24,754 bases of DNA from a virus (lineage: Duplodnaviria > Heunggongvirae > Uroviricota > Caudoviricetes). Within the stretch, counting starts at the first letter, position 1. Each line of letters opens with the position of its first letter. A model generated the notes under the pieces. That model saw nothing but the letters and a program-made list of their open reading frames with translations. It was not told the DNA's origin and ran no database searches. The DNA lies in the IMG/VR virus record IMGVR_UViG_2671181064_000003. One strand, given 5' to 3'. Below are positions 4,839-24,754 of this stretch, one piece after another. The translations under genes and the position numbers were made by a program.

Positions 4839-7800
4839 AAAAATAATGGGCGGAATAATAATCTGGCGGTCAAAGTTATGATCATCGCTTATGGTGACTG
4901 TAACCGTCCCGTTTGGTGTTTCCGTGTTACCCCACGTACCAGCCTGTTTCGGAAATGATTTGGATACAGCTTTAACGAAGTCACCTCTGACCTGAGTCGC
5001 CTCCAGCATGCCCTTAATCGTACAGTTTTCATTTACCGTGACATTGTTGAGCGTCCCGGCGTTCGCATTCACACTGCCACTGATATCCGCATTTTTAGCG
5101 GTCAGCTTTCCGTCCGGAGTCAGGGAAAATGCCGATGGATTTCCACCGCTGGTAATGGTGGGGGCCGTCAGGCGTTTCAGGAACACGTCGTTCATGAATA
5201 TCTGATCGCCCTGACCAACAAACATCGGTTTTGTGTTGCCATTCGCAGGATTAACCATCGCAATCCTGTCCGCCGCCAGCAGCACCTGACTCTGCATGCC
5301 GTCAGGGGTGTTCTCAATACCGGCACCAATACCCGCGATATAAAGGCGTCCGTCCTGCATCTGCTGCAGCTTCACAGCCCACATGCTGTTCAGGTTATTA
5401 TTTGTATCAACCTGAACCTTCTGTATCTGCTGAATTGCCGCACTCTGGTCTTCCAGTTTCTTATTGACGGTCTGCGTGATTTCATTGCTGACATCCGTAA
5501 TGGACGTCCTGATTTCAGCCAGGTCAGGCGCAAGCTGACCGTTATCAATCTGCGTCCACAGCTCCTGAGCCAGATGGGTTTTCCCTATCTCGCCTTTGAA
5601 AAAATCCAGATAACCGGATGCATCATCACTCGGCTGACCAACAGCCTCCACGAATGCCGATTTGCCAACGGTGTTCACACTGCGGATATAAAAGTAATAA
5701 TCATGGCCCGGTTTGATATTGATACTGGCGGCTATCCAGTACAGCGCCGTGCCAAGATAGCGTGCTGTGGTTTCAACCTGCCTGATATCCGCAATCCGCT
5801 TTTCCGAGAACCAGAACTCAAACTGTACCGTCGGATCATAAACCGCAAGATGCGGCGTGGCGGTTATCTGAAAATAGCCCGGCGTCAGCTCAATCCGCGA
5901 CAGCGCTGCCGGTGCGGCAATCCGGAACGATACCGACGCCGGATCGCCCTGCTGCCCCCACGCATTTACTGCCCGGACTGTCAGCCTGTAGTTCCCCAGC
6001 GCCAGTTGTGTGAAGCGGTAAGTGGTTTCCGTCGTCCGGGCCGTGCTGACCAGCCGCTCACTGCCGTCATCCGCTGTTACGGTCAGACGGAGCAGGAAGC
6101 TCACGCCCTTCACCACCTTCGGCGTGTCCCAGCGCGCCAGCACCTGATATTCCCCGCTGTCTGCGGTGACTTCGGCAGTCAGGTGCTGCACCGCTGGCGG
6201 CGTGACACCATTCACCGTGCCGCTCTGGTCGCCGTCAAAGTGCGCCCCGTTATCCACGATGGCTTCTTTTTCCGGCACATGCTGCACGGCGGTGATGGCA
6301 TACGTGCCGTCGTCGTTCTCACGGATACTCACGCAGCGGAACAATCGCTGGTGCAGCGTCGGCAGCTTCAGCCCCCACACGCTGTATTCAGCAACACCGT
6401 CAGGAACACGGCTCACTTTTACCTTCACGCCGTCGGTGACGGACTGGACCTCCACGCTGACCGGATTCCCCTGCCCGTCAACCAGGCTTATCAGCGTGGT
6501 GCCGGAGGATGGCAGCGTGATTTCACGGTCGAGCGTCAGCGTCCGGGTCTGGCTGTTCACCGCCAGCACGCGCCCGCCGGTGCGGATACCGGCATAGTCA
6601 TCATCGCAGATTTCAATGACATCGCCCGGTACATGACGAAGCCCTTCAGCACCCACGCTGAAATCCACGGTCTGCGTCTCCAGCAGTTCCGTTTTAATCA
6701 GCCACAGCCCGGCGCGGTGTGCCTGCCCCCGGCTGGTACAGCCAAAGGCATCCATCTTCGTGACGTTACGACCGTAACGGGCAATGGCCTGCGTATCCTC
6801 CACAAGCTCTGTCGCCGTCTCCCAGCCGTTATCCGGGTCAATCCAGTTCACCTCAACGGCATTATGGCGGTCTTTCAGGGCGCTGAAACTGTAGCGGAAC
6901 GGCGCGCCATCATCCGGCATCACCACATTACTGCGGTTATAGGCCCACACCTTATCCGACTGTCGGTCCTGCACGAACGTCNNNNNNNNNNNNNNNNNNN
7001 NNNNNNNNNNNNNNNNNNNNNNNGCGTCTGCCCGTTCCATACCGGCATACAGCGCATCGCCGAGCAGAAATCACTGAGCACATCCCACGCCTTGCGCTGT
7101 GTGGTCAGCCAGGCATTACAGGTGATGCGCGGCTCCGTGCTGCCAAAGCCGTCCGGCACCGACTGGTCACAGTACTGGCCGATGACATACAGCGCCCATT
7201 TATCCACATCTGCCGCACCAAGACGTTTCCCCATGCCATAGCGCGGATGGGTCAGCATATCCCACAGACACCAGGCCATGTTGTTGCTGTATGCCGGTTT
7301 TAACGTTCCGTCCCAGATACCGCTGTATTGCCGCGTCTGCGGATTATAGTTCGACGGCACCTGCAGAATGCGCCCGCGAAGATGATAATTACGGCTCACC
7401 TGCTGGCTGCCGAACTGCTCCGAATCCACCTGTACGCCGACCAGTGCCGTGTTCGGGTAGCACTGTTTCACATCGATGATTTCGGTGTATGACGACCAGA
7501 GCGTTTTGTTCTGCAGCTGGTCTGTGGTGCTGTCCGGCGTCATTCTGCGCATCCGGATATTAAACGGGCGCGGCGGCAGGTTATCCACCACCACCGAGGC
7601 CAGATACTGCGAGGTGGTTTTGCCCTTAATGGTGATGTCTTTTTCCGTCACCCAGCCACCGTTACGCTGTATCTGAACCAGCAGGCGAACTTCAGACGGA
7701 TTCCTGTCTCCCTTTGAGGTGGTTTCCACCAGTGCCTGTACACCGAAGGTAAAACGCAGTCGGTCAATGTTTGCCGACGTGATGGTCCGGGTGATCGGCG

Positions 7801-9470: not shown

Positions 9471-10169
9471 TTACTGCGAAAGTTTGTTAATGGAAAGGAA
9501 GCCGCCAAAGTTGCCGACGTTATTGCGAAACTTACAGCCACTCAGGCATTTGCTGCATTTATCCTTCGTGATGTCGGACGTTGGCTGGTCATATTCATCC
9601 GCGACCGCCGGACCGTGATAACCGCACTCATCGCCGCGATAGGTCCAGGTGCAGGTGTTGGCCAGCATGATACGTCCCGGAAAAACAGCGCCATCTGTTT
9701 CCGTCGGCGTGGACAGTACAAAAGAGGCACTCACCGCGCTCAGTTCGCTGCACTGCTCAATGCGCCAGCGGCTGATCACCTCCTGCTCCGGATCGGCGTC
9801 ACTGTTTCCGTTGACGAAGTTCACCGCATCCAGAAAACGGGCGTAAACCTTACGCCGGACCACCGTTCCGCCGACCAGACTCTGTAGATCTTCCGCCATC
9901 CCGGTGACCATACCGTACAGGTTAGAAACCATCAGCGTGGGGCGCGTACTGGTGCCTTTGCCATTCAGTTCAAAACCACTCCCCTGAATGGGATACGGCT
10001 GATACTGTCGCCCCTGCCAGGTGACCGGCTCACCTTTTTCGTTCTGCTCATTACAGAAAAAATAACGTTCTCCACCGACCTCTGTCAGATCGATTTCCCA
10101 GAGCACCACGCTGGCCGACTGCTCCGCACGGGTGCATTCATTCAGTGTTTCCTGCCGGATATCCTGCAT
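9471..10169 (-). CDS. L: Minor tail protein L
   Basis: 232-aa ORF MQDIRQETLNECTRAEQSASVVLWEIDLTEVGGERYFFCNEQ... matching lambda gpL. Confidence 0.93.
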   Translation of the reverse strand: MQDIRQETLNECTRAEQSASVVLWEIDLTEVGGERYFFCNEQNEKGEPVTWQGRQYQPYPIQGSGFELNGKGTSTRPTLMVSNLYGMVTGMAEDLQSLVGGTVVRRKVYARFLDAVNFVNGNSDADPEQEVISRWRIEQCSELSAVSASFVLSTPTETDGAVFPGRIMLANTCTWTYRGDECGYHGPAVADEYDQPTSDITKDKCSKCLSGCKFRNNVGNFGGFLSINKLSQ

Positions 10170-19180: not shown

Positions 19181-22861
<3,681 letters not shown>

Positions 22862-22887
<26 letters not shown>

Positions 22888-23407
22888 TCAGCAACCCCGG
22901 TATCAGTTCATCCAGCGCGGCTGCTTTGTTCATGGCTTTGATGATATCCCGTTTCAGGAAATCAACATGTCGGTTTTCCAGTTCCGGAAAACGCCGCTGC
23001 ACCGACAGGGGGATCCCGTCGAGAATACTGGCAATTTCACCTGCGATCCGCGACAGCACGAAAGTACAGAATGCGGTTTCCACCACTTCAGCGGAGTCTC
23101 TGGCATTTTTCAGCTCCTGTGCGTCGGCCTGCGCACGCGTAAGTCGATGGCGTTCGTACTCAATAGTCCCTGGCTGGAGATCTGTCTCGCTGGCCTGCCG
23201 CAGTTCTTCAACTTCCCGGCGCAGCTTTTCGTTCTCAATTTCAGCATCCCTTTCGGCATACCATCTTATAACGGCGGCAGAGTCATAAAGCACCTCATTA
23301 CCCTTGCCACCGCCTCGCAGAACGGGCATTCCCTGTTCCTGCCAGTTCTGAATGGTACGGATACTCGCACCGAAAATGTCAGCCAGCTGCTTTTTGTTGA
23401 CTTCCAT
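22862..23407 (-). CDS. Nu1: Terminase small subunit Nu1
   Basis: 181-aa ORF MEVNKKQLADIFGASIRTIQNWQEQGMPVLRGGGKGNEVLYDSAAVIRWYAERDAEIENEKLRREVEELRQ... matching lambda gpNu1. 3' end overlaps the A start. Confidence 0.95.
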
Positions 23408-23584
23408 TGTTCATTCCACGGACAAAAACAGAGAAAGGAAACGACAGAGGCCAAAAAGCCCGTTTTCAGCACCTGTCGTTTCCTTTCTTTTCAGGGGGTG
23501 TTTTAAATAAAAACATTAGGTTACGGCGAAGAAGAACGGAAACGCCTTAAACCGGAAAATTGTCATAAATAGCGAAAACCCGCG
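23408..23584 (-). promoter_or_regulatory. cosB region (terminase R-element and IHF-binding region) between cosN and Nu1
   Basis: Reverse complement is nearly identical to the lambda left end as I recall it (…CGCGGGTTTTCGCTATTTATGA…GGCGTTTCCGTTCTTCTTCG…GAAAGGAAACGACAGGTGCTG…CTGTCGTTTCCTTTCTCTG…), including the GTTTCC-type repeats. Confidence 0.7.
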
Positions 23585-23596
23585 CGCCTTCCGCCC
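23585..23596 (-). other. cosN (cohesive-end site), placed by homology; predicted 12-nt overhang GGGCGGAAGGCG versus lambda GGGCGGCGACCT
   Basis: Flanks align base-for-base with lambda (…CAGGTTACG | cohesive end | CGCGGGTTTTCGC…). Gene coordinates from Nu1 to I map to lambda coordinates with a constant offset that places lambda position 1 at window 23596. Confidence 0.65.
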
Positions 23597-23632
23597 CGTA
23601 ACCTGTCGGATCGCCGGAAAGGACCCGCAAAA

Positions 23633-23647
23633 TGATAATAATTATCA
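23633..23647. promoter_or_regulatory. Perfect 7-1-7 palindrome TGATAAT-A-ATTATCA, Fur-box-like candidate operator
   Basis: 15-bp perfect inverted repeat read directly from the sequence. It matches the 7-1-7 description of Fur sites (TGATAATnATTATCA). Lies ~150 bp upstream of the RHH-like ORF and ~40 bp from cosN. Confidence 0.35.
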
Positions 23648-23795
23648 TCTACATGTCACAACGTGCATCTACGCCATCAAACCACGTCAAATAATCAATT
23701 ATGACGCAGGTATCGTATTAATTGATCTGCATCAACTTAACGTAAAAACAACTTCAGACAATACAAATCAGCGACACTGAATACAGGGCAACCTC

Positions 23796-24029
23796 ATGTC
23801 AACGAAGAACAGAACCCGCAGAACAACAACCCGCAACATCCGCTTTCCTAACCAAATGATTGAACAAATTAACATCGCTCTTGTTCAAAAAGGGTCCGGG
23901 AATTTCTCAGCCTGGGTCATTGAAGCCTGCCGCCGGAGACTGTGCTCAGAAAAAAGAGTTTCGCCTGAAGCAAACAAAGAAAAGAGTGACATTACTGAAT
24001 TGCTCAGAAAACAGGTTAGACCAGATTGA
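23796..24029 (+). CDS. Small basic protein with a ribbon-helix-helix-like (Arc/MetJ/CopG-type) motif, unknown function
   Basis: 77-aa ORF MSTKNRTRRTTTRNIRFPNQMIEQINIALVQKGSGNFSAWVIEACRRRL... The segment RNIRFPNQMIEQINIALVQKGSGNFSAWVIEACRR fits the strand-helix-helix pattern. Weak ribosome-binding site. Confidence 0.55.
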   Translation: MSTKNRTRRTTTRNIRFPNQMIEQINIALVQKGSGNFSAWVIEACRRRLCSEKRVSPEANKEKSDITELLRKQVRPD

Positions 24030-24086
24030 AGCAATTTAGATAATCGTGCAGACTACGCCCCCTCATATCACATGGAAGGTACTACA

Positions 24087-24497
24087 ATGGCTCAGGTTGC
24101 CATTTTTAAACAAATATTCGATAAAGTGCGAAATAATTTAAACTATCACTGGTTTTATTCTGAACTAAAACGTCACAATGTCTCACATTACATTTACTAT
24201 TTAGCCACAGAGAATATTCATCTTGTTCTTGAAAACGATAATACGGTTTTAATAAAAGGACAGGGTAAGGTTGTAAATGTAAGATTTTCAAAAAATAAAT
24301 GCCTTATAGAAGCCACCTTAAAAGGATTCAAATCAGGAGAGTTATCATTTTACGAATACAGGAAAAATCTTGCTACAGCAGGGGTTTTCAGATGGATTAC
24401 AAATATCCACGAAAACAAAAGGTATTACTATACCTTTGATAATTCATTACTCTTTACTGAGAACATACAGAACACTACACAAATATTTCCGCACTAA
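24087..24497 (+). CDS. YbcV-like protein (DUF1398 family), unknown function
   Basis: ORF 24072..24497 contains [58 protein letters not shown]...[26 protein letters not shown], which resembles E. coli DLP12 YbcV as I recall it. Start placed at the internal ATG (24087) giving 136 aa. Confidence 0.65.
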
Positions 24498-24754
24498 ATC
24501 ATAACGTCCGGTTTCTTCCGTGCCAGAACCGGACTCGCTGGCATGATGAAATATGTGTACCCGGTAACCCCGGTGTGCATCGTTTTTGATTATTCCCGCA
24601 CACTCGCGCAGAAGGAGTTCCCCGTCGGGCTACGGTCTCTGTTAATACGGGAATACGGCGACGATTGGATTTGCCCCTATATTTCCAGACATCTGTTATC
24701 ACTTAACCCATTACAAGCCCGCTGCCGCAGATATTCCCGTGGCGAGCGATAACC

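Follow-up and report, generated by a model that had tools for sequence, protein, structure and literature searches.

Two small genes beside the cohesive-end site (cos) of a lambda-like prophage raise the question of whether they act together, as a regulator and its effector, or are simply neighbours. They lie in the IMG/VR virus record IMGVR_UViG_2671181064_000003, a stretch of 24,754 nucleotides from a member of the Caudoviricetes that was analysed as a whole and is called the window here. The upstream gene (gene 1) encodes a DUF3950 protein related to YnfO and YlcI of Escherichia coli, and the downstream gene (gene 2) a DUF1398 protein related to YdfO and YbcV. The original prediction, made from the DNA letters, proposed that they could form a regulator/effector pair expressed in the lysogen. 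Our analysis indicates that the feature is real and was correctly described, and that its interpretation as a pair is the weakest part of the finding. From the evidence that we obtained on families, coding constraint, fold topology, gene order, occurrence and base composition, together with published data on related genes, we consider it probable on balance that gene 1 encodes a dimeric ribbon-helix-helix (RHH) repressor or autoregulator and that gene 2 is separable, AT-rich cargo whose expression is at least partly independent and linked to the host regulator PdhR. The two genes look like neighbours by modular phage architecture, and not like an obligate regulator/effector or toxin/antitoxin pair.

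Both genes belong to known families. The gene 1 product matched Pfam DUF3950 (PF13132; E = 2e-20, 72.8 bits against a cut-off of 25), NCBIfam YlcI_YnfO_N (NF041551; 35.2 bits against a cut-off of 30) and phrog_949 (E = 6e-33), and shares 96% identity with YlcI/YnfO proteins of E. coli. The second gene had been called DUF1398-type and YbcV-like, and the profile search agreed (PF07166; E = 3e-43, 147 bits against a cut-off of 22, profile positions 1-119 of 119); its product is 80% identical over the full length to E. coli YdfO, for which there is a nuclear magnetic resonance structure (PDB 2HH8; phmmer E = 2.9e-67, residues 1-135). The likelier start of gene 2 is the ATG at 24087, which is preceded by the Shine-Dalgarno sequence GGAAGG at 24074-24079 and corresponds to the 136-aa form that PGAP uses in near-identical records (98%-identical E. 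coli record); the alternative ATG at 24072 would give 141 aa and has no Shine-Dalgarno sequence. Both reading frames are on the plus strand, opposite to the Nu1-type and large terminase genes, and their position, antisense to the structural operon, places them on the accessory-cargo side of cos as had been proposed. Functional temperate phages isolated from ECOR strains, PhiR49_1 among them, share 98-99% identity with a 1.3-kb region that includes both genes; phage lambda, HK629/HK630 and DE3 align to about 90% of this region at about 88% identity. The same region matches 5211 of 5426 complete E. coli genomes, at a median of 4 places per genome. The gene pair is an already known module, found in lambda, DLP12 and Qin, of which the window holds a near-identical copy and nothing new. 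That the families are known yet uncharacterised was also correctly anticipated: the 2024 y-ome review lists both ynfO and ydfO as uncharacterised, and full-text literature searches returned no functional studies on DUF1398, DUF3950 or the gene names.

Both frames are real genes, and the core of gene 1 is under strong purifying selection. Over the 52 codons of the DUF3950 core, comparison with diverged copies, those of Stx phages among them, gave ratios of nonsynonymous to synonymous substitution (dN/dS) of 0.04-0.13 at dS 0.76-1.7, so the frame is conserved as coding sequence, a point on which the original prediction depended. For DUF1398 the ratio was 0.19-0.35, the chromosomal paralogue ycgX included. 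The DUF3950 family is narrow, since matches at E up to 1e-3 comprised only 108 clusters among 1.84 billion cluster representatives. Conserved features of its members are a basic N-terminal arm, then IRFP, a helix and the motif NFSAWV(I/L)(E/D)AC; among 20-21 members, down to 28% identity, I15, I25, F37, W40 and C45 are invariant and R16, F17, S38, V41 and A44 are at least 90% conserved. The conserved core of gene 1 corresponds to residues 1-50, and beyond about residue 50 the protein is mosaic, with at least six unrelated C-terminal tails found on the same core.

The RHH-like signature with a basic N-terminal tail that had been attributed to gene 1 found support in the predicted topology and in the isoelectric point (10.9 for the protein, 11.8 for the core alone), which make it plausible, but not in profile or structure searches. 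An AlphaFold2 model built from a 21-sequence alignment, with predicted local distance difference test (pLDDT) values of 74-86 for residues 11-50, shows an extended segment at residues 14-18, a helix at 19-32, a turn at 33-36 (GSGN) and a second helix at 37-54. DSSP assigned no strand in this model, as expected because a monomer lacks the partner strand. Superpositions of the model gave local fits of 2.2-2.6 A over 39-44 residues. Foldseek returned nothing significant for the model, a hidden Markov model search of PDB sequences with the gene 1 family found no RHH chain, and none of the 21 DUF3950 members matched a Pfam RHH family at E up to 10. The hhalign comparison of gene 1 with Arc was likewise insignificant (probability 1.8%); it placed residues 12-33 on Arc residues 9-30, which is the expected register. 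In this register N14 and R16 of gene 1 would fall on N11 and R13 of Arc, base-contacting residues in the Arc-operator structure. Judging from the predicted fold and the isoelectric point, gene 1 is likely, though not proven, to encode a DNA-binding protein of the RHH type.

The distribution of the two families indicates that they are separable. Among 50,697 phage records, DUF3950 was found in 153 and DUF1398 in 43, and Stx-converting phages carry DUF3950 without DUF1398. A profile of distant DUF3950 members was also used to retrieve 80 diverse IMG/VR loci, which we then classified. Lambdoid prophages accounted for 46 of them, in which a rightward DUF3950 gene stands between leftward large and small terminase genes on one side and leftward Rz and lysozyme genes on the other; DUF1398 was present in just 17 of these 46, and the adjacent small terminase was of either the Nu1 type or the unrelated HNH plus Terminase_2 type. 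The remaining 34 loci are satellite-like, with the DUF3950 gene placed between a leftward block running from a primase gene to a small phrog_6196 'repressor' gene and leftward AlpA-like and integrase genes. Conversely, nine chromosomal DUF1398 loci of the ycgX type had no DUF3950 within 4 kb. In IMG/VR loci related to the window (L004-L083, in the part that corresponds to 22862-23800), the DUF3950 gene is 97-100% identical, the adjoining Nu1 gene ranges from 37% to 100% and the DUF1398 genes fall at about 100% or at about 76% identity; this uneven identity points to mosaic joints at cos and between gene 1 and gene 2. One further locus (L130) is a degraded Qin copy and was uninformative, and a tblastn match in Pasteurella phage Pmp7 was set aside, as it lies antisense inside an annotated repressor gene. 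A 59-aa DUF3950 protein (54% identical) was also seen in a non-phage context (L143 6001-6180), directly after genes for cytochrome bd-type oxidase subunits and before a DUF2474 gene.

Composition also differs between the genes, with a GC content of 28-35% in the DUF1398 gene, 41-45% in gene 1 and 52-58% in the terminase genes. The AlphaFold2 model of gene 2 was too poor (pLDDT 50) to give independent support for the YdfO-like fold. A search of PADLOC-DB 2.0 gave no match for gene 1 and, for gene 2, just Csx23 at E = 0.025, which is chance level; neither protein showed a second domain or a defence-related match in Pfam, NCBIfam or PADLOC, DUF1398 matched no toxin family, and no signal peptide or lipobox was found in either gene product. 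Many phage records (RefSeq entries NC_001416 and NC_019711, for example) label the DUF1398 gene 'head protein', via phrog_413, or 'putative envelope protein'; we found no support for either label. A published claim that over-expression of YdfO raises resistance to oxidative stress (PMC4077768) was left unused, ydfO having probably been confused there with yfdO of CPS-53.

For PdhR binding and dependence, for transcription in K-12 and for dispensability in lambda we relied on published work. Genomic SELEX (systematic evolution of ligands by exponential enrichment) located PdhR sites in two spacers of K-12, that of ybcV/ybcW and that between ynfO and ydfO of Qin (AAcaGGTcagACCAgaT), and ybcV mRNA was 10-fold lower in a pdhR mutant (PMC7660256). 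The window carries AACAGGTTAGACCAGAT at the corresponding place, identical to the Qin site except for one base in the unspecified central spacer. This box overlaps the single promoter-like match upstream of gene 2, which scores 9/12 and is a candidate for the DUF1398 gene's own promoter, such matches occurring at chance frequency in the region. In at least 50% of MG1655 RNA-seq samples ybcW and ylcI form a convergent excludon, which shows transcription of ylcI from a cryptic prophage resident in the host; both an ionic liquid and DicC induction provoke a strong response of ydfO. These K-12 data on orthologues, with PdhR-dependent ybcV, support the proposed expression in the lysogen. The DUF1398 gene of lambda (lambdap78) is non-essential by CRISPR interference, and the ybcV deletion is a standard, viable Keio strain. 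Over-expression of ybcV from the ASKA library gave a glycogen phenotype, so the clone is viable.

Taken together, these observations are consistent with a mechanism in which residues 13-54 of the gene 1 protein would take the RHH fold and dimerise, and the dimer would insert an N-terminal beta-ribbon (T12, N14 and R16 in 'TRNIRFP') and its basic arm into DNA. The protein would act as a small transcriptional repressor or autoregulator, expressed in the resident prophage from the strand antisense to the late operon. Gene 2 would be separately acquired AT-rich cargo encoding a soluble protein, neither a head nor an envelope protein, and would be expressed at least partly from its own promoter, overlapping the host PdhR site in the 3' end of gene 1. 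Within this scheme we infer the dimeric DNA binding, the repressor role, the target sites and the independent transcription in the window layout.

Several observations weigh against separate regulator and cargo genes. All DUF1398 genes of the prophage type that we saw (at least 70% identity) have a DUF3950 gene upstream of them. In the window just 57 bp separate the two genes, a stretch in which neither a terminator nor a stable hairpin could be detected, so that a shared transcript, and functional coupling, are possible in the Qin-type layout. No terminator-like site was found after either gene, and the 3' regions of the two genes and the palindrome upstream of gene 1 showed no significant RNA folding (z -0.6 to -1.6). 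The putative PdhR box matches 10 of the 14 specified positions of AATTGGTnnnACCAATT, which is chance level in the window alone; a consensus scan allowing up to 3 mismatches did not recover it and gave as its sole match another chance-level site, inside gene 1. The palindrome motif was missing in HNH-type phages, where the strand residues of DUF3950 are nonetheless identical, and no DNA target was identified. The operator-like arrays of the satellites, described below, could belong to the neighbouring phrog_6196 repressor and not to DUF3950. Co-orientation, the short gap and the constant gene order would suit a dedicated operon, in which the RHH protein controls a single promoter through the upstream palindrome and the DUF1398 protein is the co-transcribed effector in the lysogen; in one related locus (L280) this inverted repeat carries a symmetry-preserving change on both arms. 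We nevertheless regard such an operon as unlikely, and the regulator/effector pair of the original prediction was not borne out. DUF1398 is missing from about 110 of the 153 phage records with DUF3950 and from 29 of the 46 prophage loci, and ycgX-type DUF1398 genes stand without DUF3950. In lambda and DLP12 an opposed gene, ybcW, splits the pair, and ylcI there forms the convergent excludon with it. The published PdhR site and PdhR-dependent expression at DUF1398 homologues, the unequal GC content and the absence of the palindrome from HNH-type phages also argue against it. Much the same evidence makes a type II toxin-antitoxin system very improbable, in which gene 1 would encode the RHH antitoxin and its C-terminal tail would counteract a toxin, the DUF1398 protein of the following gene. 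The order of an RHH gene followed by a larger one, the fitting sizes, a weak PHROG match to HicB-like proteins (E = 0.055) and the fact that the 77-aa tail variant travels with a directly adjoining DUF1398 gene all speak for such a system. However, the genes are separable in both directions and do not co-occur obligately, an opposed gene lies between them in lambda and DLP12, and DUF1398 variants with just 76% identity accompany one and the same 77-aa protein. The lack of PADLOC and toxin-family matches, the viable over-expression clone and the Keio deletion strain point the same way.

The position of DUF3950 genes suggested a further explanation. In phages the gene is always at the lysis/terminase boundary, and in satellites it occupies a regulatory switch, where it is sometimes fused to the helix-turn-helix (HTH) of a small terminase; a phage DUF3950 protein could therefore take part in helper-satellite cross-talk or packaging control, by mixed dimers or shared operators. 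According to this explanation the RHH protein would act at the packaging boundary, on terminase read-through or by binding near cos, or would form mixed dimers with RHH proteins of satellites resembling phage-inducible chromosomal islands (PICIs), and DUF1398 would be irrelevant cargo. The slot beside the small terminase or HNH gene is kept across unrelated terminase families, gene 1 stays nearly constant next to Nu1 genes of very different identity, and in some PICI-like satellites DUF3950 is fused to an N-terminal HTH of the Terminase_2 type (Pfam E = 1.6e-11; L136 4714-5103 and L138 6001-6363). Locus L138 has further DUF3950 genes at 5590-5772 and 9576-9776, and its satellite adjoins a prophage with its own DUF3950 gene beside HNH and truncated small terminase genes, so that satellite and prophage copies stand side by side in one locus. 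According to a recent survey, capsid-forming PICIs (cf-PICIs) likewise carry YlcI/YnfO proteins. Upstream of satellite DUF3950 genes we found 2-3 near-perfect palindromes of 10-15 bp, spaced 20-49 bp apart (for example TGGTACGTACCA, TGTTTAACAC, GTGCACAAACAC and GTGTGCGCACA), which look like operators and differ between elements. Against this, the evidence is purely positional, no DNA motif is common to phage and satellite copies (TGGTACGTACCA was absent from the window), the satellite proteins share just 28-45% identity with that of the window, HNH-type phages have the gene beside HNH and not beside cos, and our literature searches gave no experimental link. We therefore consider this explanation rather doubtful. 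We give still less weight, as a speculative proposal, to the idea that DUF3950 is one family of small RHH regulators common to lambdoid helper phages and PICI-like satellites, with the phage copy serving cross-talk or control of the packaging operon and not the regulation of DUF1398.

The region between cos and gene 1 was compared with that of related loci. The upstream inverted repeat, which keeps its symmetry in L280, has lost its left arm in L285; this loss in one lineage and the absence of the motif from HNH-type phages mean that the palindrome is not established as an operator. On the minus strand cosN reads GGGCGGAAGGCG, against GGGCGGCGACCT in lambda, and the 5 differing bases of the 12 are all in one half. 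This variant occurs with the same flanks in 8 of 78 related loci, the other 70 having the lambda form. The sole Rfam matches, microRNA-like and at chance level, fell on the cosB hairpin. Between cosQ/cosN and gene 1, at 23634-23649, lies a near-palindrome (GATAATAATTATCATC; GATAATGATTATCATC in lambda) that by eye resembles a Fur box at about 14 of 19 positions. On the other side of the gene pair, IS2 interrupts the prophage 170 bp 3' of the DUF1398 gene. Homology of the window to intact phages ends at 24665, beyond which intact relatives continue with small reading frames, a KilA-N gene and a lysis cassette.

Positions of the features in the window and in the compared loci (ORF, open reading frame; L numbers denote loci).
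Feature	Position	Strand	Remarks
Gene 1, ynfO/ylcI-like, 77-aa DUF3950 protein	23796-24029	+	ORF list, profile matches
Gene 2, ydfO/ybcV-like, 136-aa DUF1398 protein	24087-24497	+	ORF list, profile matches
Nu1-type small terminase subunit gene	22862-23407	-	Divergent from the gene pair across cos
Large terminase gene	20962-22887	-	
cosN 12-mer	23585-23596		200 bp from the gene 1 ATG
Inverted repeat ATCAATTATGACG / CGTATTAATTGAT	23694-23726		70-100 bp 5' of gene 1; overlaps conserved ATTAATTGATCTGCATCAA
Counterpart of PdhR box, AACAGGTTAGACCAGAT	24010-24026		Within the final codons of gene 1
Sigma-70-like promoter match, TAGACC-16-GATAAT	24017-24044	+	Overlaps the PdhR box
End of IS2 copy	24666-24754		100% identity to IS2 transposase regions
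ybcW/lambdap79 in lambda/DLP12 counterparts	L001 748-954; L002 3756-3962		
Satellite palindrome arrays	L138 5545-5592, 5892-5944; L136 4592-4646; L223, L237, L250 ~4890-4975; L142 286-429		

Two kinds of database entry needed to be sorted from the true family members. In the window gene 1 and gene 2 are in one frame, split by one TGA and 19 sense codons (24027-24086), and protein clusters that look like fusions of both exist (P0134, 233 aa with 761 members, and P0130). At the codon in question they show W, where the DNA of all 4 contigs checked (L132-L135) reads TGA; a DUF3950-DUF1398 fusion or a programmed read-through of the TGA was therefore ruled out, and the clusters are artefacts of gene calling with genetic code 4. 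The shared frame is itself not conserved, since the starts of the two genes are 290 or 292 nt apart in other loci. Copies of the lambda region also occur in 'genomes', and in 'plasmids' of about 3.5 kb, attributed to Arcanobacterium, Brevibacillus, Kitasatospora, Staphylococcus, Bacillus and a spider (L092-L128, for example L094, L096 and L097, the last being CP136411.1; proteins P0015, P0027, P0059 and P0082), frequently with frameshift noise. Most likely these represent lambda control DNA from sequencing kits that was deposited in assemblies and that inflates the apparent host range of both families.

Both genes are present in phage lambda and in nearly every E. coli genome and have no assigned function, so that sorting supported from unsupported statements can direct experiments. 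For gene 1 the statement to carry forward is a probable RHH DNA binder, as modelled, that keeps a fixed slot beside the terminase genes and also has a counterpart among PICI-like satellites; for gene 2 it is a separable AT-rich cargo that is probably under PdhR control. The false fusion proteins and the lambda DNA deposited as unrelated genomes or plasmids may mislead and are flagged for this reason. The positional link between DUF3950 and PICI-like satellites may merit testing, beside the old question of the two lambda y-genes.

Among known systems, RHH proteins are the nearest structural neighbours of the gene 1 model in the PDB. With the Arc, Mnt and CopG repressors and the RHH antitoxins RelB, ParD and TacA gene 1 shares the predicted strand-helix-turn-helix, a G-x-x-N/S turn and a basic N-terminal arm; unlike them, it has no profile match to an RHH Pfam family or PDB chain and no evident cognate toxin. 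The cargo genes bor and lom of lambda (morons) resemble the genes of the window in being small, antisense to or independent of the late operon, and atypical in GC content. Orthologues of the window genes also share with them dispensability for lytic growth (lambdap78) and transcription from resident prophages, whereas bor and lom have known products and phenotypes and the window genes have no assigned phenotype and no signal peptide, lipobox or terminator that we could find.

The nearest relative in layout is ynfO-ydfO of Qin in E. coli K-12, which has the same gene order and orientation, the same slot beside a Nu1-like gene (nohA) and no ybcW between the genes; unlike Qin, the window prophage has an apparently full lambda-like morphogenesis region, a variant cosN and IS2 170 bp downstream. 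In lambda and DLP12 the order is Nu1/nohD, cos, ylcI (+), ybcW/lambdap79 (-), ybcV/lambdap78 (+) and bor. Their DUF3950 core is 96% identical and their DUF1398 protein 76-78% identical to those of the window, and the genes likewise lie beside cos on the strand opposite to late transcription. They differ from the window in the opposed 68-aa ybcW/lambdap79 between the genes and in bor downstream, neither of which has a homologue in the window, and lambda YlcI has 64 aa and another tail than the 77-aa protein. It was recently reported that lambdap79 activates the Vulcan NADase defence system and that lambda escapers of Vulcan lose lambdap79 by recombination with Qin; the layout of the window, in which gene 2 follows gene 1 directly, is the gene order of these reported escapers.

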